DNA of 64,000 nucleotides from an uncultured bacterium (GTDB taxonomy: Bacteria; Verrucomicrobiota; Lentisphaeria; Victivallales; UBA1829). Every line of letters begins with the position of its first letter. Positions within the stretch are counted from its first letter, which is position 1. The position numbers and the translations under genes are program-made. The notes below the pieces were generated by a model. The model ran no database searches, was not told the DNA's origin, and was given only the letters and a program-made list of their open reading frames with translations. Positions 2,743 to 16,326 of the stretch are shown here, in pieces. The DNA is taken from the NCBI GenBank assembly GCA_902778895.1, contig CACYZF010000010.1, positions 71,785-135,784 of the forward strand. The letters run 5' to 3'.

Positions 2743-3747
2743 CTATTTCGAGGCGGGCGCGGTAACGGGTTCCAGCGTCACGGTGGCCTGGGCGGGGATC
2801 ACCTCGACCACCTTGATGCGGTCGTTGTCCGACCAGCATTTGATATCGACGGTATAGACGCCCGGACGCGTCACGTCCGAGAGGTCGAGGAACGGATGGA
2901 TCTGCGTCTGGGAGATGTCGGGCACGCTGTCGACCAGGACGGTCACGGATTCGGGCTGGATTTTCGAAATGATGAGGTTGTTCGCGCCGGTCCTGCCGAA
3001 GAGGACCTGAACGGGAATGCCGTCGAAGGCGCGCGGCTTGTTCTTCTCGACCTTCACTTCGACCTTCACCTTGCCGGACAGGATCTCAATGTTCCTGCCG
3101 TACGGCGAGACCGGGTCGACCTGGCGCGAGAAGCTTTTCGTGACATTCGCCAGCGGGATCTTCTCCGTTTCGAGATACTCGATGGTGTCGAGGAGCTTTT
3201 TCGGGCCGCGGATCGTAACCGGTCTTTCCGGCTGGATCAGCGATGCCTGATAACCCTCCATCACCTCGGCGGAATCACTGACGGGGTGGACCGGGACGTC
3301 CTTCGTATCCATGATGTCGATGTTCAGCGGGATCATGTCGGGATTGACGGCCAGCACGTGCAGTTCGTCGAACACGATGTTCGACCGCACCATGTCCAGA
3401 CGGAGCTCGACGGGCATATCCGTCTCGACCTGATATTTCGTCACGGGGCATTCGAGGTAGAAATCCGTGTTTTTCAGCGTCTTCTGTTCCTTGGGAACCT
3501 CCAGCGTGATGTCGGCGGACACGTCGCGCGGGATGAGCGTGACGCCTTCCTCAAGAGGCACGAAGCGGATCGGCACGTTCCGGATGTTGACCCGAACCAG
3601 CTCCATCCGCGATTTCACGTTCTGGTACGCGTACCAGGTCAGCAGACAGGCGAAGATCAGCGCAAAGACTTTACGCCAGAAATCGTGCCGGATGACATAC
3701 GGAATGTGCGGCAGGACTTTCTTCCAGAAATCGCGGACCGAGCTCAT
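2743..3747 (-). CDS. cdaR: YbbR-domain protein, probable CdaA regulator (CdaR)
   Basis: N-terminal TM anchor followed by repeated beta-rich YbbR-like modules. Start overlaps the cdaA stop by 4 nt (3744-3747), the canonical cdaA-cdaR arrangement. Confidence 0.7.
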   Translation of the reverse strand: MSSVRDFWKKVLPHIPYVIRHDFWRKVFALIFACLLTWYAYQNVKSRMELVRVNIRNVPIRFVPLEEGVTLIPRDVSADITLEVPKEQKTLKNTDFYLECPVTKYQVETDMPVELRLDMVRSNIVFDELHVLAVNPDMIPLNIDIMDTKDVPVHPVSDSAEVMEGYQASLIQPERPVTIRGPKKLLDTIEYLETEKIPLANVTKSFSRQVDPVSPYGRNIEILSGKVKVEVKVEKNKPRAFDGIPVQVLFGRTGANNLIISKIQPESVTVLVDSVPDISQTQIHPFLDLSDVTRPGVYTVDIKCWSDNDRIKVVEVIPAQATVTLEPVTAPASK

Positions 3748-4598
3748 GCTTCACCGTCCTTTCCGGCCTCGGCCGCCTCGTCCGTCTTCAGTTCCAGCTC
3801 GGATGCCTTGCCGAGACGTTTCCACGGCGCTTTCTTCCGTTCCAGCAGGATCGTACTGAGCTGGAACCGGAGTTCCTCCGTGTTCAGACCGCGAACCAGA
3901 CGGCCTTTTTTCGCCAGGCTGATCAGTCCGGTCTCCTCGGAAACGACCACCGCAACGGCGTCGGTCTCCTGCGAGATGCCGACCGCGGCGCGATGACGCG
4001 TGCCGAGGCGTTTTCCGTTCACGAAATAATCTTCTTCCGCCAGCGGCAGCACGGCATGGGCGGCCACGATGCGGTTGTTCTTCCCGATGACCACGGCGCA
4101 GTCGTGAAGCGGCGAGTTCGGGTAGAAAAGAGACTGGAGCAGCAGGGAATCCACGCGGGCGTCCAGCGAAACCGCCGACCGCGTGGTGTCCGTGAGACCG
4201 ATATTGCGTTCGAACACGATGATCGCGCCGGTCCGCGTAATGGAAAGCTGCGCGGCGGCTTCGGTCACCTGGTCGATCGTTTCCTGTCCGGTCCGGTTCG
4301 ATACGAACAGACTGCCCGCCTGCGCGAACGCACGCCGGAATTCCGGCTGGAAGATCACGAGGATGGCGATGCCGAGGGACGGGATCAGGCATTCGATGAG
4401 CAGGAACCGCAGCACGGTCAGACGTTCCACGTAGTCGACCGCGATCGTGGCGGTCAGCAGGACCGCGATCACGCCGAAAAGCACGTTGGCGCTGCGGGTG
4501 CCGCGCAGGAAATACAGGACCCAGTAGATCATCGCCCAGATGATCACGAAGTCGACGGAATAGAAAAGATATTTGACGATGACGTCCTGATTCGGCAT
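3744..4598 (-). CDS. cdaA: diadenylate cyclase CdaA (c-di-AMP synthase)
   Basis: Three N-terminal TM helices plus a DAC domain: GAIIVFERN, LHDCAVVI, GTRHRAAVGISQETDAVAVVVSEETG. Confidence 0.9.
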   Translation of the reverse strand: MPNQDVIVKYLFYSVDFVIIWAMIYWVLYFLRGTRSANVLFGVIAVLLTATIAVDYVERLTVLRFLLIECLIPSLGIAILVIFQPEFRRAFAQAGSLFVSNRTGQETIDQVTEAAAQLSITRTGAIIVFERNIGLTDTTRSAVSLDARVDSLLLQSLFYPNSPLHDCAVVIGKNNRIVAAHAVLPLAEEDYFVNGKRLGTRHRAAVGISQETDAVAVVVSEETGLISLAKKGRLVRGLNTEELRFQLSTILLERKKAPWKRLGKASELELKTDEAAEAGKDGEA

Positions 4599-4787: not shown

Positions 4788-7532
4788 TCAGCCGCGCACT
4801 GTATCAGCACCGCTTGCGGTGGCCAGCTCGCGCAGTTTCTTCAGGTCTTTTTTTCCGTTGCCGAGGAACGGGATCTTTTCCAACGGGAAGAAGCAGTCGG
4901 GACGCGGCACCCAGAGGTTCGGCAGACCGGATTCGCGAAGACGGTTCCCGGCGTCGACGGGATCGAGTCCGCAGTCGACGGCATAGAATACGATGAGCTG
5001 TTCGCCCTTCCTCGAATCGGGACGCGCCGTGACCGCCACCTTGCCTTCGAGTCCGTAGAATTCCTCCAGACGGTTTTCGATCAGCTCATGCGGGACCATC
5101 TCGCCGCCGATCTTGCTGAACCGGGAAAGACGCCCCGTGATGCGGATGTAGCCGTCGCGGTCCATGGATGCGACGTCGTTGGTGTTGTACCAGCCGTCCG
5201 GTGTCATGGCTGCCGCCGTAGCCTCGGGATCGTCCAGATAGCCGAGCATCACGGACGCCGATTTCAGCTGAAGCAGACCTTCCTTGCCGGGGCCAAGCAG
5301 CTCGCCCGTATCCACATCCGCGATGCGCGCCGCGATACCCGGCATGGCGACGCCGATGCTCCCCTCCGGCCCCGCCTCGCGTCCGACCGCCAGGAAATCC
5401 TTCGGCAGGTTCAGCGACACGATCGGCGACATCTCTGTGCAGCCGTAGCCCTCGATGATATGCAGCCCGGCCAGTTCGAAGAACGCGTCCGCGAGACGTT
5501 TCTGAAGTTTCTCCGCCCCGGTCACCATCATGCGGAGCGAATCGAAATCGCCCGGCTTGCAGTTCCGCATGTAAGTCTGCAAAAACGTCGGAGTGGAGAT
5601 CAGCATCGTGACCTTGTCGTCGCGCACCGCCTTGCATACGCCCGCGCCGTCCAGCGGATTCGCCACCAGCGTGACCTTCGTCCCCGTGACGCCGGGGAAA
5701 CACAGTCCGACCATCAGGCCGAACGCGTGGAAGAGAGGCAGGTTGCCGAGGATGCGCTCCGTGCCGTACAGCCAGTTCAGCTGCCGCCAGAAACTCCAAA
5801 TATTCGCCGTGATGTTGTGGTGGGACAGAAGGATGCCTTTCGGCATGCCCGTGGACCCGCTGGAGAACAGGAGAGCGGCCGGGTGCATGAGGTCGGTGCC
5901 ATAGCGCGGCGAGACCAGACGGATGAGGAGCTGATGCGGCAGGAGAATGATCTGCGCCGCAGTCAGGAGTTTATCAGCCTTCGTGACGAGCTTCGGCAGG
6001 TCCTCCAGGAAAAACATCTCGTCGCGCATCGACTTCTTCAGCTTGCTCAGGAAAAGACGGCTCGTGATGACCGTCTTCAGTTTCGCGCGGTCGTACATGG
6101 ACTGCATCACCGCATCGCCCGCCGTGTAGTTCAGGATCGCGGGCGTCCGGTCGGCGAACATCACGCCGAGGAGCACCGCCACGGAGACCGCCTTGTTCGG
6201 CAGCAGCACGCCCACGAACTGTCCGTCGTCGCCGCGCTCCTCCAGAATCCGTCTCAGCTTCCGGCTGATGATGATCGACTGCGCCAGCATGGCGAAATTC
6301 GACAGGCCCTTCGGAGCGTCGGCGTCCTTGAACGTGCTTTCGAACGGATGCTGCAGCGACCGGCGCAGGTAACGGTAATGGACCGTCTTCTCCCCGCGCA
6401 CTGGCTTCATCTCCGCCTCCGCGCCAAGCTCCTGGATCCGCTGCCAGATGCGGAATCCGTTCCAGTCCGGCGGGATCGGCTCACCGACAATGATCGTGCC
6501 CGGGATCGGCAGCAGACGCGGCTTGATGAACCTCAGTTTCCCGTTGTAGATCGTCAGCAGGCTCCCCCAGTGAAGCCCCAGACGCACCGGGACCACCGGA
6601 ATGTCCGGCGACGGCATCAGCCGGTACAGGCCCGACCGGAACGCGTGCGTGATGCCGTTCGGGGAGATTGCGCCCTCCGGGAATACACAGACCGCGCCGC
6701 CGCGGTTCAGGACCGCGTGCGATTGTTCGATCAGGTGCCGCATTTTCTCCCGGTTCATCCCGCGCGGCACTTCCAGCGCGCCGCTCCACCTGAAAAACAG
6801 ATGCAGGCCGGGGAACCGGTAGAACGCCTCGTCCACCATGAACGTCACGCGGCGCGGTTTCAGGCACAAGATAAAGATGAAATCAAGGAACGAAATATGG
6901 TTCGCGACAAGCAGGACCGGCCCGGAGTCCGGATAGTTTTCGATGCGGTCGACGCGGATCCGGTACAACGAATGCGACAGGATCAGACCGAGCGTCCGCA
7001 ACGTCAGCGACGGCCGCCAGATCAGCAGGGCAGCCAGCCAGACCGCCAGCGCGATTTCAAGCGCATGGACGCCCTGCGCGCCGCGCCATGCCACGACATG
7101 CGCCAGAACCTTCGACAGGATCAGCAGAACAGCCGCGCTTGCGAACACCGATTTACCCGGCCCCATTCCGAGACGCGACCGGACCGCCGCGGCGAGCATC
7201 TGCGATCCGATCCACAGAAACACCCAGAATCCGCCGCACGCCATCGCGAGGGCGAGACTGCGTTTCACGTCTCCGCCCGTCAGGGACCAGTGCAGGCCCA
7301 GGATTGCGAACAGCAGTCCCGGCACCACCGCGCCGACCAGCACACCGTAATTCCGTGCGCACAGCATCGACGCGAATCCAGCCGCGATCGAGAGTCCGGC
7401 GAGCCAGACGCCCCACGCGGGAAGCGAGGAATACGAAACAAGGTTCAAAACGAGCTGGCAGGCAGCGAGCAGCAGGATGCCGGACACACCGGCGATGGCG
7501 GAAGTGATCGTGAGTTCAAGATTGTTCTTCAT
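4788..7532 (-). CDS. Aas-like fusion: polytopic membrane domain + PlsC-type acyltransferase + acyl-CoA/acyl-ACP synthetase (AMP-binding)
   Basis: ~190 aa of TM helices; acyltransferase HX4D-type block (LLVANHISFLDFIF, VFPEGAIS); adenylation motifs (LLFSSGSTGMPKGILLSHHN, GYGCTE, TGDV-like NTNDVASMDRDGY). Start moved from 7595 to the Met at 7532 because a promoter (7581-7609) lies inside the longer ORF. Confidence 0.8.
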   Translation of the reverse strand: MKNNLELTITSAIAGVSGILLLAACQLVLNLVSYSSLPAWGVWLAGLSIAAGFASMLCARNYGVLVGAVVPGLLFAILGLHWSLTGGDVKRSLALAMACGGFWVFLWIGSQMLAAAVRSRLGMGPGKSVFASAAVLLILSKVLAHVVAWRGAQGVHALEIALAVWLAALLIWRPSLTLRTLGLILSHSLYRIRVDRIENYPDSGPVLLVANHISFLDFIFILCLKPRRVTFMVDEAFYRFPGLHLFFRWSGALEVPRGMNREKMRHLIEQSHAVLNRGGAVCVFPEGAISPNGITHAFRSGLYRLMPSPDIPVVPVRLGLHWGSLLTIYNGKLRFIKPRLLPIPGTIIVGEPIPPDWNGFRIWQRIQELGAEAEMKPVRGEKTVHYRYLRRSLQHPFESTFKDADAPKGLSNFAMLAQSIIISRKLRRILEERGDDGQFVGVLLPNKAVSVAVLLGVMFADRTPAILNYTAGDAVMQSMYDRAKLKTVITSRLFLSKLKKSMRDEMFFLEDLPKLVTKADKLLTAAQIILLPHQLLIRLVSPRYGTDLMHPAALLFSSGSTGMPKGILLSHHNITANIWSFWRQLNWLYGTERILGNLPLFHAFGLMVGLCFPGVTGTKVTLVANPLDGAGVCKAVRDDKVTMLISTPTFLQTYMRNCKPGDFDSLRMMVTGAEKLQKRLADAFFELAGLHIIEGYGCTEMSPIVSLNLPKDFLAVGREAGPEGSIGVAMPGIAARIADVDTGELLGPGKEGLLQLKSASVMLGYLDDPEATAAAMTPDGWYNTNDVASMDRDGYIRITGRLSRFSKIGGEMVPHELIENRLEEFYGLEGKVAVTARPDSRKGEQLIVFYAVDCGLDPVDAGNRLRESGLPNLWVPRPDCFFPLEKIPFLGNGKKDLKKLRELATASGADTVRG

Positions 7533-7580
7533 GGCATCGGAAACAGCGCAAAAAATGATTCTGGTGTTGATTCTGACGAT

Positions 7581-7609
7581 AATATATCCCGGCACGCCAT
7601 CTTTTACAA
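7581..7609 (-). promoter_or_regulatory. sigma70-type promoter for the aas-like gene
   Basis: Minus strand reads TTGTAA-N17-TATATT. Confidence 0.5.
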
Positions 7610-7713
7610 GTCCTTTTTTAGCTTGTTCCGGTGTTTTGTTTCAGACATTTCCTTCCGGCGAAACGGAATTCTCTTTTCCATCTGAAAAAACACATTTTTC
7701 TCCGCAGAACCAT

Positions 7714-7741
7714 TTGAATATTTCGAGGAACGATGTATATT
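7714..7741 (+). promoter_or_regulatory. sigma70-type promoter for the TolC-like gene
   Basis: TTGAAT-N16-TATATT, ~60 nt upstream of the ATG at 7800. Confidence 0.45.
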
Positions 7742-7799
7742 TAGAGGTAGTAATTCGTTTACAAAAACTTTTTACCCCATCGAAAGGCGACTGGACCAA

Positions 7800-9221
7800 A
7801 TGAAAATTCAAGTTTTGAGCGCTACCGCCGTTTCCGCGATCCTCCTCGCGGCCCTCACCGCGTGCAACGTCGCGAAACCGCCTGCGGCTATTTCCAAGGA
7901 CAAATATACCGAGATCACCGAAGAAGAACACCAGCAGCTTCCGAAGGGACTCAAGCTCCTCACGCTCGACGAGGCGCAGTCCATCGCCATCCAGAACAAC
8001 CCGAGCTTCAAGTCCCGCTATTTCGCCGTCTCTCAGGCGCGCGCCCAGTACTACAGCCGGTTCGCGTCCTACATGCCTACCGTCACGGCTTCCTACGCGA
8101 TGAACTCCTACCACAGCCACGGCTACACGGAAGACGCCGGCGCCAGCTACAAGACCTATACGTCCAACCCGTCCATGAGCGCCTCGCTGCTCGTCTTCGA
8201 CAGCTTCCAGCGCGAAATGAACCTGCTGGCCGCCCGCCACAACTGGAAGAGCTCCGAACAGGTCGAGCAGGACGCCCGCCGTCTGCTCCTCCAGAACGTT
8301 GCATACGCCTACAACAATGTGATGCTGGCGAAGGCCAGACGCAACATCGCGATTGAGGACATGCGCTACAACCGCCAGCTCCTCAAGGAAACCGAGCTCA
8401 AGTACGGCGTCGGCGCATCCACGCTTTCCGACGTCCTCAACTTCAAAGTCAACTACAACAACGCCGAGAGCAGCCTCTATAACGCGAACTACTCCCTCGC
8501 CTCCTCGAAGTATGCGCTCGCCGCGCTCATGGGCCTCACCGAAGGCACCATCCCGGACGAAGTCGAATTCCCGGAAGAACTCTCGATCGACGGCGAAATG
8601 CTCGCCGATGAAAACGTCTACCTCGACGCCGCCCTCGCCAACCGTCCCGACCTGAAGGCCCTCCGCGAATCCCTCGAAGCCTCCAAGTTCAGCTACTATT
8701 CCAGCATCGCCGCGTTCGGTCCGACCGTCTCCGCCCAGATTGGCGTAGGCTACAACAACACCGCCACGCATTACAGCCCGTTCAATTCCGACGCCGGCTA
8801 CACCCAGCGCCAGGGCATCCGCAGAAACCGCTACAGCACGTTCTCCAGCAGCATCGGCGTCTCCTGGGAGCTCTTCTCCGGCGGCAGGACCTTCTTCAAC
8901 ATGCGCGCCTCCCAGGCCGCGATGGAACAGGCCGAGTACACGCTCGCGGACAAGTGGATCACCGTCATCAACGACGTCCGCACCGCCTACGAAAACTACA
9001 TCGTCAGCCTCAAGACCGTCAAGCTCTACCAGAAGAACCTCGAAGCCGTCCGCAAGATGCGCGATCTGGTCGACGACGAATACGAGGCCGGCAACTGCGC
9101 CATCACCCGTGTGAACGAAGTTCAGCGCGAATTCGTCAACGCCGAGACCTATCTCGCCCAGGCCGTCGTCAGCATGCACAACGCCAAGGCGCAGATCCTC
9201 GCCGCGACCAACGCCAACTGA
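7800..9221 (+). CDS. TolC/NodT-family outer membrane efflux lipoprotein
   Basis: Lipobox LTAC at residues 19-22. Two OEP-type repeats with long coiled alpha-helical segments (YYSRFASYMPTV, LLQNVAYAYNNVMLAK, AQAVVSMHNAKAQILAAT). Confidence 0.8.
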   Translation: MKIQVLSATAVSAILLAALTACNVAKPPAAISKDKYTEITEEEHQQLPKGLKLLTLDEAQSIAIQNNPSFKSRYFAVSQARAQYYSRFASYMPTVTASYAMNSYHSHGYTEDAGASYKTYTSNPSMSASLLVFDSFQREMNLLAARHNWKSSEQVEQDARRLLLQNVAYAYNNVMLAKARRNIAIEDMRYNRQLLKETELKYGVGASTLSDVLNFKVNYNNAESSLYNANYSLASSKYALAALMGLTEGTIPDEVEFPEELSIDGEMLADENVYLDAALANRPDLKALRESLEASKFSYYSSIAAFGPTVSAQIGVGYNNTATHYSPFNSDAGYTQRQGIRRNRYSTFSSSIGVSWELFSGGRTFFNMRASQAAMEQAEYTLADKWITVINDVRTAYENYIVSLKTVKLYQKNLEAVRKMRDLVDDEYEAGNCAITRVNEVQREFVNAETYLAQAVVSMHNAKAQILAATNAN

Positions 9222-9257
9222 TCTGATCTTTTTCAACCGCAATCCTGAACACAATCC

Positions 9258-9285
9258 GCGGGCCGTCACAGGCCCGCATCTTTTC
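9258..9285 (+). terminator. terminator-like hairpin directly abutting the gltX start codon
   Basis: GCGGGCC-gtcaca-GGCCCGC followed by atcTTTTccc; ends 6 nt before the ATG at 9291. Confidence 0.45.
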
Positions 9286-9290
9286 CCATC

Positions 9291-10877
9291 ATGCAGCACA
9301 GACTCAGATTCGCTCCCTCCCCGACCGGGCAGGTCCACATCGGAAACATCCGCACCGCGATCTTCAACTGGCTTGCCGCCCGCCACATGGGCGGCAAGTT
9401 CATTCTGAGAATTGAGGACACCGACCTCGAACGTTCCACGAAAGAAGCGATCGACACGCTCCTTGAATGCATGGAGTGGCTAGGCCTCGACTACGACGAG
9501 GACGTCCTCTACCAGACCACGCAGGCGCAGCATCACCTCGACGCCGCGAAGAAGCTCATGGACGGCGGAAACGCCTATCCGCTCGGACCCGTCACGGAGC
9601 ATTCACCGATCCTTTTCCGCATCCCCGTCTTCTGCGACGAATTTCCGTTCGTGCGCACGGTCGGCCCGGCCTCTTATACGCTCGCGCCGGACACCGCGGT
9701 CGAGATCAACGGCGGTGGACTGAAATTCACCACGCTCTCTCCGAAGGGCAAGCCCGTCGAGAACCAGGCGTGCCTCGCCGGATTCAAGGACCTCGCGATC
9801 CTCGACGCCGCCGGGCAGACGCTCTTCACGCTCACGGATGACAAGCTCAACGAGATACTGAACTACGGTAAGTCCGAGACCGTCGAACACGCCGCCTCCA
9901 TGACGTTCACCCGCCGCGAAGTCTTCTACGACGATATGGTCAAGGGACACCTTTCCAAGCCGCTCGACAGCATGCGCGACTTCATCATCGTCCGCAGCGA
10001 CGGCAGCCCGGTCTTCCACCTCGCGAATGTCTGCGACGACATCACGCAGGACATCACGCTCATCGTGCGCGGCGACGACCACGTGGAAAATACCTACCGC
10101 CATCTCTTCATGTTCCAGACGCTCGGCGCGAAGGTCCCGTCCTACGCCCACCTGCCGATGATCGTGAATGCCCAGGGCAAGCCCTACAGCAAGCGCGACG
10201 GCGACGCGTTCGTCGGAGATTTCCGCGACAAAGGCGTGCTCCCCGAGGCGCTGTTCAACTACCTGACGCTCCTCGGCTGGTCCTCCGGCGACAACCGCGA
10301 AAAGATGTCCCGCGAAGAGCTCGTCGAGGCGTTCGACCTCGCCCGCGCCCAGCATTCGCCCGCCCAGTTCGACGCCGTGAAGATGGCGAACCTGAACGGC
10401 CAGTACATCGCCGCGCTCGATCCGGCGGTCTTCCGCGAACGCGCCTGGGATTTCGCAGCCGCCTACCCGTGGCGGGAATCCGTCGACCGCGCGAAATTCT
10501 ACGCCGTGGCCGACCTCATGCAGACCCGCACCAAGCTCATGACCGACCTGGCGACATGGACGTATTTCTTTGCCGTCCCGGTCGACTACGATCCGAAGGG
10601 CGTGAAGAAATTCCTCACGCCGGAACCCATGCGCGCCGCCCTCGAAAAAGCCGCCGGTGCGTTCGATTCTCTCCCCGAAAACGATCCGAAGACCGTCGAA
10701 GACGCGCTCCGCGCCATCGAGACCGCCGACGGACTTTCCCAGTTCGCCCTCAATCAGCCCGTCCGCGTCGCCGTCTGCGGCATCACCGTCGGCGCCAGCA
10801 TCTACGAAACGGTCGTCTGCATTGGCGTGAAGGAATGCGCCCGCCGCATCCGCGCCGCCCTCGCCGCGACCGCATAA
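9291..10877 (+). CDS. gltX: glutamate--tRNA ligase
   Basis: RFAPSPTGQVHIGNIRTA (HIGH), ILRIEDTDLERS, IVRGDDHVENT, KPYSKRDG (KMSKS-like). Confidence 0.95.
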   Translation: MQHRLRFAPSPTGQVHIGNIRTAIFNWLAARHMGGKFILRIEDTDLERSTKEAIDTLLECMEWLGLDYDEDVLYQTTQAQHHLDAAKKLMDGGNAYPLGPVTEHSPILFRIPVFCDEFPFVRTVGPASYTLAPDTAVEINGGGLKFTTLSPKGKPVENQACLAGFKDLAILDAAGQTLFTLTDDKLNEILNYGKSETVEHAASMTFTRREVFYDDMVKGHLSKPLDSMRDFIIVRSDGSPVFHLANVCDDITQDITLIVRGDDHVENTYRHLFMFQTLGAKVPSYAHLPMIVNAQGKPYSKRDGDAFVGDFRDKGVLPEALFNYLTLLGWSSGDNREKMSREELVEAFDLARAQHSPAQFDAVKMANLNGQYIAALDPAVFRERAWDFAAAYPWRESVDRAKFYAVADLMQTRTKLMTDLATWTYFFAVPVDYDPKGVKKFLTPEPMRAALEKAAGAFDSLPENDPKTVEDALRAIETADGLSQFALNQPVRVAVCGITVGASIYETVVCIGVKECARRIRAALAATA

Positions 10878-10895
10878 CCGCTTTCTGGAGGACGC

Positions 10896-11504
10896 ATGAA
10901 CAACATCCCCGTCGAAAAACTGAGGCTCCGGCTGCTCGGCGATCCGATCCTGGCGGCGAAGGCGCGCCCGGTCGAACAGATCACCGAGGAGACGCAGCGC
11001 ATTTCCGAGGCCATGCTCGACATCATGTACAAATCGCACGGGATCGGCCTCGCCGGAAACCAGGTCGGGCTGCTCCAGCGCATCGTGACCATCGACATCG
11101 ATCCGCCGACCGACGAGGACGGAAACGAGCTTCCGGTCCATACCGAGGGAGAAAAGAAGCTTCTCCCGAAGATGCCGATCACGCTGATCAACCCGGAGAT
11201 CGTTTCGTACTCCGGCAATCTCTGCCCGTTCGACGAAGGCTGCCTGAGCGTGCCGGAGGTCTACGCCCGCGTCATGCGCAGCGACGCCGTCGTGCTCAAA
11301 TCCATGCTTCTCGACGGCTCCGAGTTCGTCCTCGAATGCGGCGGACTCCTCGCGCGCGTCGTCCAGCACGAGCTCGACCATCTCGACGGCATCGTGTTCG
11401 TCCAGAAGGTCGATCCGGAAGTCTATCCCGGCATTTCCAAACGCGTCGAAAAGATCATCAAGCGCAACGGCCCCCGCGGCTTCAAAGTCAGGAGGCTCGT
11501 CTGA
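10896..11504 (+). CDS. def: peptide deformylase
   Basis: GIGLAGNQVG, EGCLSVP and HELDHLDG, the three PDF motifs. Confidence 0.95.
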   Translation: MNNIPVEKLRLRLLGDPILAAKARPVEQITEETQRISEAMLDIMYKSHGIGLAGNQVGLLQRIVTIDIDPPTDEDGNELPVHTEGEKKLLPKMPITLINPEIVSYSGNLCPFDEGCLSVPEVYARVMRSDAVVLKSMLLDGSEFVLECGGLLARVVQHELDHLDGIVFVQKVDPEVYPGISKRVEKIIKRNGPRGFKVRRLV

Positions 11505-11506
11505 CC

Positions 11507-12532
11507 ATGCCTCAACCCGGGACAAACACCGGGTCCACGCCCGGCTTCCTCGCCACGACGGCGCGCCTGTGCGCCGGCACGAAAATCATGACCGAGATCT
11601 ATGAATCTTCGCCCGCGCGCGCCATATGGCGGTTCTTCCTGCTGACCATACTCTGTTCCATCATGGCGGCGGTCGTCGGGACGCTTGTGCAGAAAGGCGT
11701 GTTCGAGCGCGCCGGACGCAATCTCGACGAGGAGATCGGGGCATTCGAGGTCACGCCGGAAACGATCTCGTTCCGGAAAGAACCGGATACGCCGCGCCGC
11801 TTCAAGCTGCCTTATATCACGCTGGAATACTACCCCGGGGACACGTTCACGAGCGAGGATTTCAACGCCGACCGCACTTCCGACCACGGCGTCGTGATCC
11901 TCCCCGGCGGCCTGGCCTCCTGGGCCTCGGTCAACTGGAACGGCGAAGATGTTTTTTATGCAAGTTTCCTGCCCGCGTCCATGCTCTACGCCTCGCTTTC
12001 CGGGGGAAAGAATACCGATCTCAACAGCATCGGCGCACGCTGGGAGATGTTCTCCGGCCCCGGCTTTGCCGAAACGCTGAAAAAAGAGTTCGCCGCGCCA
12101 AAATCGAAAAAGGCGGACAAAGCATCTCAGGCGGAAAACGCCGACCCGGTCCTGACGACCGGTTCGCAGGCCGCCAGTTTCGCTCTCTCTCTGCTGACCG
12201 CGATCATCCTGCTGTCCACGTTCGCCCGGAATTTCCTGGAGATCGGCCTGATCGTGTTGCTGGTGTCGCTGGTCCAGTATCTGCGCGCCTCCACCCTCCC
12301 GAAGGGGATCATCTACAAAAACGTGCTCACGATCATGATCTATTCCACCTTCCCCGCCCAGATCGCCGCCACGCTGTTCGACGCCGCGGGCGGCGACAGA
12401 TTCATCTCGTTTCAGATTCTTTTCGTCGGAATCTTTTTCGTCTACCAGCTCTTCGCATTCCGGGCCGTCATCAGGAAAGTCTGCCCGCAGATCGACCGGA
12501 AAGACGACGATTTCGACGATTCCGATTTTTAA
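11507..12532 (+). CDS. polytopic membrane protein of unknown function (possibly DUF1189-like)
   Basis: The ORF-track ORF 10469-12532 overlaps gltX/def in another frame, so only the part after the def stop is credible. Candidate starts are ATG 11507 (2 nt after def) or ATG 11588. One N-terminal TM, a soluble loop, then ~4 C-terminal TM helices and an acidic tail. No family-defining motif recognised. Confidence 0.55.
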   Translation: MPQPGTNTGSTPGFLATTARLCAGTKIMTEIYESSPARAIWRFFLLTILCSIMAAVVGTLVQKGVFERAGRNLDEEIGAFEVTPETISFRKEPDTPRRFKLPYITLEYYPGDTFTSEDFNADRTSDHGVVILPGGLASWASVNWNGEDVFYASFLPASMLYASLSGGKNTDLNSIGARWEMFSGPGFAETLKKEFAAPKSKKADKASQAENADPVLTTGSQAASFALSLLTAIILLSTFARNFLEIGLIVLLVSLVQYLRASTLPKGIIYKNVLTIMIYSTFPAQIAATLFDAAGGDRFISFQILFVGIFFVYQLFAFRAVIRKVCPQIDRKDDDFDDSDF

Positions 12533-12558
12533 CCGCCTGTCAAAAGGAGACAGACCCT

Positions 12559-13278
12559 ATGAACAAAACTCTTGAACACTGCCGAATCCAGAACTGGTAT
12601 CCGCGTCTCTCCGTATATTCCCTGCCCACCAACTTCGTGTTCCTGATGGATATTGAGATCAAGGCGCTTCAGGAAGGCGATGCGGAATCCGGCATCGCGA
12701 AAAACGTGATCGACCGGCTCGAAAGCGCCATGAGCAAGTTCCCGTTCACGCGCTTCGTGGGGACCGACCTCGTCGCTCCGACCGACACGGTCCGCTTCGA
12801 GGAGAAACGCGGCGCGGTCCGTTCCGCCACCAGCGCATGGTATTTCCTGACGCAGAGCGCGAAGGTGCGGAACGCCGCCCAGAAAGGCATGGTCTCCGCC
12901 CTCTGCGTCCGTCCGTTCCGCCGCATGGATTCCGCCCGTGAGTTCCGTCTGTTCGTGAAAAACGGCAAGCTCCGCGCGATGAGCCAGTACTGGATGACGC
13001 GCAACTATCCGCGCCTGGAGAAATCCCGCGAAAAATACTGGACGCTCGCCGTCGACTTCATCGACAAGAACTTCTGGGTGCTTCCGGAACCGGATATCGT
13101 GCTCGACATCTACTTCACCTCCAAGGACGAGATCCTCGTGATCGACCTGAATCCGTTCGGTCCGCCCACCGATCCGAAGATGCTCAACACATGGGATCAG
13201 GACTGGCTGAACTCCATGGGGATGAAGCTTATCCCGCCGCCGACCGCGATTTCCGGCGACATCAACGTCTCTTTCTGA
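12559..13278 (+). CDS. Cdc123/D123-family ATP-grasp protein (bacterial homolog)
   Basis: Internal start with SD aaGGAGA 8 nt upstream. Blocks match eukaryotic CDC123 as I recall it: LEHCRIQNWYP (human LHCQFSAWYP), EFRLFVKNGKLRAMSQY (EFRCFV..ISQR), VLDIYFTS..ILVIDLNPFGPPTDPKMLNTW (VFDIY..LIDFNPFGEVTDSLLFTW). Confidence 0.8.
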   Translation: MNKTLEHCRIQNWYPRLSVYSLPTNFVFLMDIEIKALQEGDAESGIAKNVIDRLESAMSKFPFTRFVGTDLVAPTDTVRFEEKRGAVRSATSAWYFLTQSAKVRNAAQKGMVSALCVRPFRRMDSAREFRLFVKNGKLRAMSQYWMTRNYPRLEKSREKYWTLAVDFIDKNFWVLPEPDIVLDIYFTSKDEILVIDLNPFGPPTDPKMLNTWDQDWLNSMGMKLIPPPTAISGDINVSF

Positions 13279-13339
13279 CGCACACTTTTATCCTCATCCC
13301 GTCACGGAAAAAAACCGCACGTTTTTTCCGCACGGACAG

Positions 13340-13367
13340 TTGATTCCGTCATACGGTGTGCTATATT
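13340..13367 (+). promoter_or_regulatory. sigma70-type promoter (extended -10) for the GH2 gene
   Basis: TTGATT-N16-TATATT with TGc immediately upstream of the -10. Confidence 0.5.
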
Positions 13368-13452
13368 ATTAGATAAAATCATTTTTCGTTTTTTCAGCTC
13401 CAGTCTGCTCGCGCCGGACAGTACGCGACACACCAAGAAAGGACAGCATACT

Positions 13453-16326
13453 ATGAATATGAAATCATATAAAACCGTCGCCGAGATCGTCTGCCTGTTC
13501 CTCTTCCTGCTGCTTCTCGCCGGGACCGCAAGCGCATCCGAAATCTACGACTTCAATCCCGGCTGGATGTTCCTGCATTCGGATCATCAGATCGCATCGA
13601 AGGAATATAAAGAGCACAAGAGCATCTGGGCCGGAGCGAAGGCCGCCACGTCGGACGTCGTCTGGCCGTTCACAGGGTTCGATTTCGATGAAGAGGAATT
13701 CCGCCCCGTCAATCTGCCCCATGACTGGGCCGTCGAGGACGGCTTCTATCCGGAAGAGGACGGAGAACAGGGCTACCGCAGACGCGGCTGGGGATATTAC
13801 CGCAAACGCTTCTTCGTGCCGTCCACATGGAAAGGCAAACGCGTGGAACTTCAGTTCGGCGGCGTCGCCACGCACTCGACCTTCTGGATCAACCAGGCCC
13901 TTTTCCATCACAATTACAGCGGATACAACACCTTTACCATGGACATCACTCCGGTTCTGATGTACGGACGTGACAACGTGATCGCAGTCGAAGTCAATGC
14001 CGCGGTTTTCGAGGGCTGGTGGTACGAGGGCGCCGGTATCTATCGCGACGTCAAGCTCATCGTCAGCGATCCGCTCCATATCGCCACGAATGACGGCATA
14101 TTGGTCAATGCCGAGGTCAAACTCGATGGCTGGAATGTCAGCGGATATGTGAATCTCATCAATGATTCGGCCAAGGAGGAATCTCCGATGTTGGATATCG
14201 ACATCCTTGACCCCTCCGGGAAAACGGTTGAGACCAAACGGTTCCTTCCGACTCTTCCGGCGAACCAGACGCTTCAGGTCCCGTACTCCGTCCGCATCGG
14301 ATCGCCGAAGACCTGGTCGCCCGACACGCCTCAGCTTTATCAGATTAAAGTCACGCTCAAGGACGGAGTCCGCGTTTACGACGAGAAGAAAGTCAACTTC
14401 GGATTCCGCACCTACAAATTCGATTTCACCAACGGATTCTCCCTGAACGGCAAGCCGATGAAGATCAAAGGCGTCTGCAACCATCAGGATCATGCCGGCG
14501 TCGGAGCGGCCGTCCCCGCCGCCATAGAGGAATTCCGCATCAAAAAACTCAAGGAAATGGGCGCGAACGCTTACCGCTGCGCCCACAATCCGCCGAGCGA
14601 AAACATCCTCAACCTCTGCGACAAGTACGGGCTTCTCGTCATCGACGAAAACCGCGCGTTCAATGCGTCTCAGGAAAATCTGAACTACCTCCGCGAACAT
14701 ATCCGCCGCGACCGCAACCATCCCTCCGTCATTCTCTGGAGCATCTTCAACGAAGAACCGCTGCAGAGTGAGTTCCTCGGACAGGAAATCGCCCGCGCAC
14801 TGGTCAATGTGGTCAAAAAGGAAGACCCGACGCGTCCTGTTCTCGCCGCCATGAACGGCGGGTTCTTCTCGAAAGACAGCGCACGCAACGTCCTTGACAT
14901 CGTCGGTTTCAACTACCAGTACGGCAACATCGACAGATTCCATGCCGAATACCCGAACATCCCGATCCTGCTCACCGAAGGCGCCAGCGCGTTCGAGACG
15001 CGCGGCGAATTCAAGACGGACAAAGAAAAAAACATCGCTTCCTCTTATGACATTTTTGCCGCCGACTGGGGCACCACCCACCGCAAGGACTGGGAAACCG
15101 TCCTGAACCGCCGCTTCCTTGCCGGCACGTTCGTCTGGACCGGATTCGACTACCACGGAGAACCCACGCCCTACAACAACAAGTTCCCGGCGAACAGCAG
15201 CTATTTCGGATGCATGGACCTCTGCGGCTTCCCGAAGACAGCCTTCTACATCCGTCAGGCGCAGTGGCTCGACAAACCTGTTCTGCATGTCGCTCCGCAC
15301 TGGAATCTTGATGTCAAAAACGAAGAGGAAGTCGACGTTTTCTGCGCGACGAACATGGAAGAAGTCACGTTCATTCTGAACGGCAAGGACATCGGCACGT
15401 TCAAGGTCGATCCTGTCGAAATGCTGACGCAGAAAGTCAAATATGAACCCGGCACGCTGCTCCTCATCGGCAGAAAAGGCGGTCAGGAAATCGTCCGTAC
15501 GCAGGTCGAGACCACCGGCAAACCTGTCGGGCTTGTAATCACACCAGACCGCAATGAGATCAAGGGCGACGGTTATGACGCCGTTCCCGTCACGGTCAGC
15601 GCCGTCGACGCGTCCGGACGCCTCGTCCCGACCGCCAACGTCCCCGTCGAATTTGAGATTTCCGGCCCCGGACGAAACATCGGCGTCGGCAACGGCGACC
15701 CCACCTGCACGCTCAGCGAGAAGGCGAATTCCCGTCCGCTTTTCAACGGCTACGCCCAGCTTATCGTCCAGTCCGACCGCGTGCAAAAGGGCACGATCGA
15801 GATCACGGCAAAAAGCGAGGGGCTCAAATCCGCTTCCTGCTCCCTCAAAATCGCTTCCTCGACCGGACTTCCCTTCATCGAAGGTTTCACGAACAATGAG
15901 ATCGCAATCTCCGGTTGGCGCGCCTCCAGCCCGTCCATGGAAAAACCGATTCTTCTCTCGGAAGACTCCGGCGAAGAGCTGAAAAAACAGCTTGCGCCCG
16001 CCGAGCTCGGCAGTGTACTCTCCCTCAAACCCAGGACATGGGTCAATTACTATGCCGAGTTCAAGATCCCCTCTGTCATCACGGAAAAAGGCGGCTCCCT
16101 GTGCTTCAAAAACATGACGGGGAAAGCCATGATCTACATCAACGGGGAATTGCTCCATGAAAAGAAGACCGTAGCAGCCAGCGACATCATCATTCCGCTG
16201 AAGAAAAAGATTGAAAAGATTGAGCTCAACGTCTTCATGCAGCCGGACGGCAAGGGACATGTCCTTCTCGGCGACCTTGTCTACGTTTCGCCGGAAAAGC
16301 TCAAGAAGACTTCCGACAAAAAATAA
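13453..16326 (+). CDS. secreted glycoside hydrolase family 2 (beta-galactosidase/beta-glucuronidase-like)
   Basis: Signal peptide (LLLLAGTASA). GH2 blocks: NLPHDWAVE, GAGIYRDVKL, GVCNHQDHAGVG, NAYRCAHNPPS, DRNHPSVILWSIFNEE, WTGFDYHGEP; C-terminal Ig-like/accessory domains. Confidence 0.85.
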   Translation: MNMKSYKTVAEIVCLFLFLLLLAGTASASEIYDFNPGWMFLHSDHQIASKEYKEHKSIWAGAKAATSDVVWPFTGFDFDEEEFRPVNLPHDWAVEDGFYPEEDGEQGYRRRGWGYYRKRFFVPSTWKGKRVELQFGGVATHSTFWINQALFHHNYSGYNTFTMDITPVLMYGRDNVIAVEVNAAVFEGWWYEGAGIYRDVKLIVSDPLHIATNDGILVNAEVKLDGWNVSGYVNLINDSAKEESPMLDIDILDPSGKTVETKRFLPTLPANQTLQVPYSVRIGSPKTWSPDTPQLYQIKVTLKDGVRVYDEKKVNFGFRTYKFDFTNGFSLNGKPMKIKGVCNHQDHAGVGAAVPAAIEEFRIKKLKEMGANAYRCAHNPPSENILNLCDKYGLLVIDENRAFNASQENLNYLREHIRRDRNHPSVILWSIFNEEPLQSEFLGQEIARALVNVVKKEDPTRPVLAAMNGGFFSKDSARNVLDIVGFNYQYGNIDRFHAEYPNIPILLTEGASAFETRGEFKTDKEKNIASSYDIFAADWGTTHRKDWETVLNRRFLAGTFVWTGFDYHGEPTPYNNKFPANSSYFGCMDLCGFPKTAFYIRQAQWLDKPVLHVAPHWNLDVKNEEEVDVFCATNMEEVTFILNGKDIGTFKVDPVEMLTQKVKYEPGTLLLIGRKGGQEIVRTQVETTGKPVGLVITPDRNEIKGDGYDAVPVTVSAVDASGRLVPTANVPVEFEISGPGRNIGVGNGDPTCTLSEKANSRPLFNGYAQLIVQSDRVQKGTIEITAKSEGLKSASCSLKIASSTGLPFIEGFTNNEIAISGWRASSPSMEKPILLSEDSGEELKKQLAPAELGSVLSLKPRTWVNYYAEFKIPSVITEKGGSLCFKNMTGKAMIYINGELLHEKKTVAASDIIIPLKKKIEKIELNVFMQPDGKGHVLLGDLVYVSPEKLKKTSDKK

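Follow-up and report, generated by a model that had tools for sequence, protein, structure and literature searches.

A lysine-less bacterial subfamily of Cdc123/D123-type ATP-grasp proteins encoded beside peptide deformylase and a membrane protein in Lentisphaerota

What a relative of the eukaryotic protein Cdc123 might do in a bacterium is the question raised by a gene located at positions 12559-13278 (+ strand) of the 64,000-nucleotide (nt) stretch of DNA analyzed here (the window), which derives from an uncultured bacterium of the order Victivallales (contig CACYZF010000010.1). The gene encodes a protein of 239 amino acids (aa) and is preceded on the same strand by genes for glutamate--tRNA ligase (gltX), peptide deformylase (def) and a membrane protein. 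Cdc123 is essential in eukaryotes, where it binds domain III of eIF2-gamma and promotes the assembly of eIF2; eIF2 is absent from bacteria, and the client of the bacterial protein must therefore differ from that of its eukaryotic counterpart. Eukaryotic Cdc123 is an ATP-binding eIF2 assembly factor and an ATPase, for which ligase activity is not known (PMC8844851, PMC12860950), and bacterial CDC123 homologs, including that of Lentisphaera araneosa, were described in 2015 and interpreted only as effectors or as proteins linked to type VI secretion systems (T6SS; PMC4431377). The answer favored here, to which a probability of about 45% is assigned, is that the protein is an operon-encoded, membrane-associated factor that uses ATP to assemble or modify newly made proteins, and not a toxin, effector or defense component.

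The product of the open reading frame (ORF) is a genuine Cdc123/D123-type ATP-grasp protein and belongs to a distinct, chromosomally inherited bacterial subfamily. Residues 102-213 match the Pfam D123 model (PF07065) with 63.1 bits (E = 3.1e-17; gathering score 24), and the models PF18299 (R2K_2) and PF14243 (R2K_3) align to the protein below threshold; no NCBIfam model matches it, and the NCBI name of its protein cluster is "hypothetical protein [Lentisphaeria bacterium]". A profile made from 31 homologs of the subfamily detects human Cdc123 (8phd, E = 7e-15) and Schizosaccharomyces pombe Cdc123 (4zgn, E = 6e-9). The AlphaFold (AF2) model of the protein has a predicted local distance difference test score (pLDDT) of 93.1 and a predicted template modeling score (pTM) of 0.87, and the ten best Foldseek matches to it in the PDB are all Cdc123 chains (E = 1e-16 to 4e-15, query template modeling score, TMq, 0.77-0.81). 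RimK-, Ddl- and LysX-type ATP-grasp folds come next, with template modeling (TM) scores of only 0.40-0.48. The first-pass annotation of this DNA, which was made by reading the sequence, had recognized a Cdc123/D123 homolog from three sequence blocks, all of which prove to be in register with human Cdc123 (HCxxxxWYP; E128-F-R130...S142-Q143; I-D196-L-N198-P-F...T204-D...W212), and the structure prediction it proposed yields a Cdc123-type ATP-grasp fold in which the putative Mg-ATP ligands, an Asp and an Asp-x-Asn, are in place. Its description of bacterial D123 homologs as rare was an overstatement, as such homologs, Lentisphaerae included, were published in 2015 (PMC4431377) and a D123-type profile search, exhaustive over 1.84 billion cluster representatives, returned 2049 representatives at E ≤ 1e-3, eukaryotes included.

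With eukaryotic Cdc123 (human 8PHD/8PHV; S. pombe 4ZGN-4ZGQ) the window protein has in common the Pfam family, the two-domain ATP-grasp fold, the WYP block, the A-P-x-D loop, the ExR and SQ motifs, the Mg-ATP ligands and the TD...W end, and both appear tied to the apparatus of translation or protein biogenesis. Unlike the eukaryotic protein, the window protein lacks disordered inserts and a C-terminal extension, is paired with a membrane protein, and has residues of its own (D70, R79, K83, R121 and R127) together with replacements of the human residues K104 and R111. It is also basic, with an isoelectric point (pI) of 9.0; the subfamily is near-neutral to basic (median pI 7.8), the majority of the remaining D123 proteins being acidic.

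A gap in profile score sets the subfamily apart from every other D123 protein, full-length members reaching at least 166 bits and the remainder at most 100 bits, and the segment that would bind phosphate distinguishes it further. In the R2K clade, to which CDC123 proteins belong, the signature consists of a strand-2 lysine (human K104), described as "absolutely conserved", and a second Lys/Arg in the next loop (PMC4431377); human R111 contacts ATP (PMC12860950). Human numbering is the chain numbering of 8phd plus 20. In-register alignments place window residues F66-V-G68-T-D70-L-V-A73-P74-T75-D76 against human F102-P-K104-L-N-W-S-A109-P-R111-D112, anchored by F66 = F102, A73 = A109, P74 = P110 and D76 = D112, so that both basic signature positions are occupied by other residues in the window protein, G68 and T75. 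The apparently rewired segment continues to R84 (F66-V-G68-T-D70-L-V-A-P74-T75-D76-T-V-R79-F-E-E-K83-R84; 12754-12810, + strand). When one hidden Markov model was used to align 128 members of the subfamily and 103 D123 proteins from outside it, the position of K104 was found to hold Ser (60), Phe (37), Gly (18), Thr (3) or Tyr (3) in the subfamily, and Lys or Arg in 102 of the 103 others; at the position of R111, Thr is present in 115/128 subfamily members and Lys or Arg in 93/103 others. Invariance or near-invariance confined to the subfamily is seen at five residues, D70, R79, K83, R121 and R127.

The remainder of the site is retained. W13, P74, D76, R118, E128, R130, Q143, D183, D/E196 and N198 are kept in both groups, and six of these (E128, R130, Q143, D183, D196 and N198) occur in at least 126 of the 128 subfamily members. 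The ExR motif E128-F-R130 (12940-12948, + strand), which lies in the kinase-like domain's first strand, has its glutamate in 127/128 subfamily members and 101/103 others and its arginine in 127/128 and 102/103, respectively. The segment D183...D196-L-N198 (13105-13152, + strand) corresponds, in the alignment with 8phd, to human D233 and D246xN248, the ATP-grasp ligands listed in PMC4431377, where the ExR motif is also defined; D183 is found in 127/128, D196 in 126/128 and N198 in 127/128 members. The combination of invariant ligands and swapped basic residues suggests that the Mg-nucleotide core is under selection and that the phosphate-contacting residues have been exchanged, and the subfamily would accordingly be expected, from residue conservation, to bind ATP.

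A different construction can be put on the same columns, namely that the subfamily consists of non-catalytic pseudoenzymes that have lost ATP binding or hydrolysis and whose sole function is to provide the membrane protein with a scaffold or adaptor. The presence of Ser, Phe or Gly at the K104 position and of Thr at the R111 position in nearly all 128 members speaks for it, as does the fact that the human residue equivalent to the second of these contacts ATP. It is nevertheless considered improbable, as near-invariance of D183, D196, N198, E128, R130 and Q143 among proteins that are 29-90% identical is unexpected for a dead site, and four of the new invariant basic residues (R79, K83, R121 and R127) flank the site in sequence and could substitute for those lost.

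When one genome for each GTDB species was scanned with a pattern specific to the D123 subfamily, 73 loci were obtained, every one of them in Lentisphaerota; represented are Victivallales, Victivallaceae, Victivallis vadensis and, as a complete genome, strain zth2. Neighboring genes were detected by tblastn with the window proteins, and start codons were picked heuristically. The def gene lies upstream of the D123 gene in 69/73 loci; two of the remaining four are cut by contig ends, leaving linkage in 69 of 71 informative loci and two true exceptions. All 69 def-bearing loci have between these genes an ORF of at least 200 codons, typically encoding 290-430 aa, in which one hydrophobic segment lies N-terminally and three to four lie C-terminally. 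The gap between def and this membrane-protein gene has a median of 2 nt, with overlap in 32/69 loci, and that between the membrane-protein gene and the D123 gene a median of 24 nt, with overlap in 10. This arrangement persists at identities of 43-90% for D123, 38-93% for Def and down to ∼20% for the membrane protein. The genes further upstream are more variable: gltX precedes def in 48/73 loci and tolC is found upstream in 51/73, eight loci lack gltX between tolC and def, and several others have neither gene within 6 kb. The conserved core is thus def, the membrane-protein gene and the D123 gene, and the linkage proposed in the first-pass annotation, to def and gltX together with the membrane protein, stands for def and the membrane protein and not for gltX. 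Two further core-type operons were obtained from metagenomes in a scan with the subfamily protein P0248, which returned none of the ffh-linked type described below; a metagenome scan with the protein P0253 gave no matches.

The synteny downstream of the D123 gene served as a control. Of the 52 loci whose downstream sequence extends to 2.5 kb or more, just 10 have the commonest gene family, and the GH2 glycosidase gene that follows D123 in the window recurs only in locus L001; chance adjacency was rejected on the strength of this control, no gene being common to more than 10/52 loci. Conservation of the operon across the sampled Lentisphaerota is an observation, and the subfamily appears to be vertically inherited. 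It may still be asked whether the neighborhood represents chance or frozen ancestral synteny without functional coupling. The confinement of all core-type loci to one phylum is in keeping with such an origin, and so are two loci in which the linkage has been lost and the D123 gene is visibly undamaged. This explanation is regarded as very improbable, since gene order decays immediately downstream of D123 and partially upstream, gltX or tolC being lost in many loci, whereas the core holds at ∼20-50% protein identity, and stop/start overlaps within it are frequent.

In a clade of ten species (L013, 6737-8354; L018, L019, L020, L022, L032, L051, L060, L068 and L069), the D123 gene is followed within ∼26 nt by an mcsA-like gene encoding a UVR motif and by mcsB, encoding a protein arginine kinase, both of which are protein quality-control genes.

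Beyond the core-type operons, the subfamily includes more divergent lysine-less members that are 29-44% identical, lack a DUF1189-like neighbor (see below) and are found exclusively in chromosomal, housekeeping contexts. In two of these loci the D123 gene is joined to ffh, which encodes the signal recognition particle protein SRP54. In the first (L074, P0253; 4526-8221), the order is ffh-D123-rseP, with an ATGA overlap between ffh and the D123 gene and an 11-nt overlap between the D123 stop and the rseP-like gene, whose product is an M50/PDZ protease. In the second (L078, P0248; 2781-5720), the order is map-ffh-D123-pdxJ, with a TAATG overlap between ffh and the D123 gene. Another recurrent context, in which a DAHP synthase gene comes after the D123 gene, was detected in three lineages (L075, 6001-9615; L080, 5001-8595; and L085, 5001-6799, with L086, 1149-2947), in two of which an AMP-binding, acyl-CoA-ligase-like gene intervenes; in L085, ffh lies 3.5 kb away. 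The remaining arrangements are exbD-D123-U32 peptidase (L077), UDP-glucose dehydrogenase-D123-rubrerythrin (L081) and D123-polyprenyl synthase-PTPS-murJ (L082).

Canonical bacterial and viral CDC123 proteins (R2K.1), which have been found in T6SS toxin loci, among Legionella effectors and in giant viruses, belong to the same family and have the same core motifs and a similarly compact size (240-290 aa). They retain the sequence F-x-K-[LM]-x-x-R-S-P-K-D, the two signature basic residues of which are missing from the window subfamily, and they occur sporadically, in association with conflict or mobile elements, in contrast to the housekeeping chromosomal location of the subfamily and its single fixed operon across the sampled Lentisphaerota. 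Two lysine-bearing (SPKD-type) D123 genes that were sampled (L083, 4139-4981; L084, 3477-4301) are embedded in phage-like arrays in which small ORFs overlap and which carry DUF1643, DUF6197, DUF5131, DUF4326, RyR and phage lysozyme, settings that accord with the view of Burroughs et al. (PMC4431377), which links such proteins to conflict and mobile elements.

Could the window protein likewise be a component of a conflict system, as a secondary toxin, an effector or a regulator of immunity? This is the sole functional proposal published for bacterial CDC123 (T6SS polymorphic-toxin loci and Legionella; PMC4431377), and the phage-like surroundings of the two lysine-bearing relatives agree with it. 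For the window subfamily it is extremely improbable. The ORFs examined around the D123 gene (tolC, gltX, def, the DUF1189-like gene and the GH2 gene) include no T6SS, toxin or immunity genes and show no linkage to VgrG, Hcp, PAAR or SUKH genes or to mobile elements, such as would mark a conflict-type CDC123 locus; a fixed position in the same operon in 69 species is the opposite of a sporadic horizontal pattern, and the subfamily is set apart from other D123 proteins by the score gap described above. PADLOC models gave no match to the D123 protein, the membrane protein, Def or the TolC-like product, and a tblastn search against phages gave no match; a conflict or defense role was rejected on these results for the D123 cluster, together with the composition of the surrounding ORFs.

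The membrane protein encoded between def and the D123 gene (11507-12532, + strand; 341 aa) is DUF1189-like (PF06691), although the match of the window protein itself, of aa 227-317 to positions 154-243 of the 244-position profile, scores 23.3 bits and falls below the gathering score of 28. Among 31 orthologs, 25 match DUF1189 at E < 0.01 (best 1.4e-8) and six also match Yip1; DUF1189 and Yip1 are members of the same Pfam clan, CL0112 (PMC6682643). The likeness is confined to the C-terminal helical bundle, which aligns with the C-terminal part of the profile; the partner differs from DUF1189 proteins in a large β-rich loop domain and evolves fast (∼20% identity within the phylum). An AF2 model built with closer homologs (pLDDT 76.6) has helices at 36-77, 219-259, 270-293 and 302-325, and its predicted order is a short N-terminal helix with the conserved FxxxxxxxCxGT motif, a long first transmembrane helix, a β-rich domain of ∼140 aa, three transmembrane helices and a disordered C-terminal tail. 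Since four transmembrane helices are predicted and the N-terminal segment, 260-269 loop and C-terminal tail carry positive charges, both termini are probably cytoplasmic and the β domain periplasmic. A fold search of the PDB with the model found nothing significant (best MacB, E = 0.17, TM 0.24), and a protein search with an alignment of the membrane proteins returned almost only sequences already found.

From these elements a scheme can be proposed for the factor favored here. The soluble D123 protein would bind Mg-ATP by means of the ExR, Asp and Asp-x-Asn residues that it has kept, and the subfamily-specific residues R79, K83, R121 and R127 would take over the phosphate contacts. It would cooperate physically with the membrane protein on the cytoplasmic side of the inner membrane. 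There it may assemble or modify newly made proteins, allied to the exit-site factors Def, MAP and SRP54, in an action that would parallel the use of ATP by eukaryotic Cdc123 in eIF2 assembly. That it helps new proteins to mature or assemble is suggested by the recurrence, as its tightest neighbors, of Def, MAP and SRP54, all of which handle nascent chains where these leave the ribosome, and, by analogy, by the precedent of eukaryotic Cdc123, which uses ATP in assembly and is not known to have ligase activity. The mcsA-mcsB genes that follow D123 in the ten-species clade are in line with the theme of protein maturation. The housekeeping, non-conflict role that the first-pass annotation had put forward, possibly exercised together with the membrane protein, is likewise the one favored by the comparative data.

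Several observations weigh against this interpretation. Both of the signature basic residues that contact ATP in canonical Cdc123 are missing, and the nucleotide binding that the scheme presumes is deduced from the conservation of the other residues. Two Lentisphaerota metagenome-assembled genomes, L021 (5935-6717) and L028 (4611-5339), encode an intact D123 protein without def or the membrane-protein gene. As the core-type loci are confined to one phylum, the synteny may in part reflect inheritance rather than selection. Divergent members other than the ffh-linked pair adjoin genes for DAHP synthase, an acyl-CoA-ligase-like protein, UDP-glucose dehydrogenase, polyprenyl synthase and MurJ, or a U32 peptidase, and such mixed metabolic and envelope contexts indicate that the link to nascent-chain factors is recurrent and not general; moreover, both ffh-linked contigs have a G+C content of ∼32%, so that their independence may be incomplete. 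The broken linkage in two loci and the contexts of the divergent members weaken the case for a maturation role in particular. In the two exceptional loci, as judged from translations read by eye, the ORFs upstream of the D123 gene are metallophosphoesterase-like and FAD oxidoreductase-like in L021 and LptD-like in L028.

The main rival to a protein-maturation factor is a ligase acting with the membrane protein; pseudoenzyme, conflict component and chance adjacency are less likely. According to this rival, the membrane protein and the D123 protein alone form a unit unrelated to translation, an ATP-grasp ligase for a small molecule or envelope component whose product is handled or exported by the Yip1-clan protein, perhaps with TolC, and def and gltX do no more than share the transcript. 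ATP-grasp enzymes with the ExR motif are for the most part ligases producing peptide-like linkages in cell-wall components and metabolites (PMC4431377), Yip1-clan members resemble transporters (PMC6682643), tolC lies upstream in the 51 loci mentioned above, and the divergent members located by DAHP synthase with or without the AMP-binding ligase, by UDP-glucose dehydrogenase or by polyprenyl synthase and murJ would all suit an enzyme of this kind. It is nevertheless thought unlikely. The junction between def and the membrane-protein gene is tighter than that between the membrane-protein gene and the D123 gene, divergent members occur without a DUF1189-like neighbor, and overlap of the ffh stop with the D123 start has been seen twice. 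Furthermore, Cdc123 proteins are not known to act as ligases (PMC8844851), and loss of the equivalents of K104 and R111 speaks against a standard acyl-phosphate ligase cycle.

RimK, LysX and Ddl, the next-best structures after Cdc123 (5i47, 1uc9 and 3q1k; E ∼1e-5 to 1e-6), have an ExR-type kinase-like domain in common with the window protein, which resembles them only distantly in fold, as the TM scores given above indicate, and lacks the ssxGbGl loop, the lysine of the pre-ATP-grasp linker and the strand-2 lysine. RimK and LysX modify the acidic C-termini of partner proteins, and the membrane partner of the D123 protein is often acidic-tailed. In the window its C-terminal region (12473-12529) contains the sequence KDDDFDDSDF, and acidic ends of a similar kind (...DDDF, DDEDIF, DYDDF) are present in about half of 70 orthologs (from loci L001-L073), resembling the C-termini that are recognized or modified by other ATP-grasp ligases. 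The tail was considered as a substrate of the D123 protein in the manner of RimK or LysW and set aside, because only about half of the orthologs have it; it is retained as a lead only.

The family and the fold had been described before; what appears to be undescribed is the subfamily without the lysine, the housekeeping operon in which it is fixed, and the association with def and ffh. A literature search found no paper connecting Cdc123 with deformylase, and the 2015 paper (PMC4431377) was the only one found to mention Cdc123 together with Lentisphaerae or, in this sense, the R2K clade. The chemistry of Cdc123 is poorly understood, ATPase activity having been reported as late as 2025 and ligase activity never having been found, and in the sole published view the bacterial relatives are components of conflict systems, from one of which the eukaryotic protein was recruited. 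The subfamily behaves otherwise, with a phylum-wide operon that includes def and a membrane-protein gene, an overlap with ffh in relatives and a remodeled phosphate-binding site. If a role in protein maturation is correct, it would provide a bacterial model, small and soluble and with its genetic partners defined, in which to study Cdc123-type ATP-grasp action, and a candidate new factor in co-translational protein maturation or membrane-protein biogenesis, and it would bear on the origin of the eukaryotic factor. A bolder and decidedly doubtful extension is that the lysine-less subfamily, associated in Lentisphaerota with a Yip1-clan partner, represents an unrecognized protein-biogenesis factor beside the exit-site machinery at the membrane, and that the link between Cdc123 and translation predates eukaryotes; if true, this would be an alternative to recruitment of Cdc123 from a bacterial conflict system. 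The presence of the operon in cultured Lentisphaerota (Victivallis vadensis and strain zth2) makes these proposals testable.

Within the window, the D123 gene, which encodes the Cdc123/D123-type ATP-grasp protein of the lysine-less subfamily, closes a same-strand cluster headed by a tolC-like outer-membrane efflux gene (7800-9221, + strand; Pfam OEP, E = 4.4e-53), which is divergent from a minus-strand Aas-like gene. The cluster had been described in the first-pass annotation as comprising four genes; these and their spacing were correctly given, and the count becomes five with inclusion of the tolC-like first gene. The gltX gene (9291-10877, + strand) encodes a glutamate--tRNA ligase of 528 aa (TIGR00464, 391 bits; cut-off 290), aa 6-97 and 207-522 of which align to model positions 4-95 and 150-465, a match in two stretches that indicates an insertion of ∼55 aa in the catalytic domain. 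It is followed by def (10896-11504, + strand; Pfam Pep_deformylase, E = 1.4e-42; TIGR00079, 138.6 bits), the translation of which carries the catalytic motifs GIGLAGNQ, EGCLS and HELDH. The gaps of 18 nt between gltX and def, 2 nt between def and the DUF1189-like (Yip1-clan) membrane-protein gene and 26 nt between the latter and the D123 gene were exact on re-measurement, as was the Shine-Dalgarno-like sequence AAGGAGA (12544-12550, + strand), read from the sequence 9 nt ahead of the D123 ATG. A consensus scan detected neither promoter-like nor terminator-like sites on the + strand from gltX to D123, in agreement with the earlier reading; def, the membrane-protein gene and the D123 gene are likely to be co-transcribed. 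The same type of scan detected a GC-rich hairpin with seven G-C pairs in the interval between tolC and gltX (9258-9277, + strand), the T-run 3′ of which is weak (ATCTTTTCCC); it is a possible partial terminator or attenuator. An Rfam scan of 7400-13700 found no RNA families.

Just 3′ of the D123 gene, at 13315-13335, a terminator-like hairpin with a T-run was detected only on the minus strand. In the + strand orientation, two C-A mismatches occur in the stem and the T-run is absent, so that no canonical intrinsic terminator follows the D123 gene. A promoter-like site, also from the consensus scan, is located at 13340-13369, ahead of the next gene, which encodes a GH2 glycosidase of 957 aa (13453-16326). 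This enzyme matches the β-galactosidase part of the PADLOC model PDLC01990 with 50 bits, which most likely reflects a shared enzyme domain and not a defense function. On the other side of the cluster, the minus strand carries, between 2743 and 7595, genes for a YbbR protein (2743-3747), a c-di-AMP cyclase-like DAC protein (3744-4598) and an Aas-like fusion of acyltransferase and AMP-binding domains (4788-7595).

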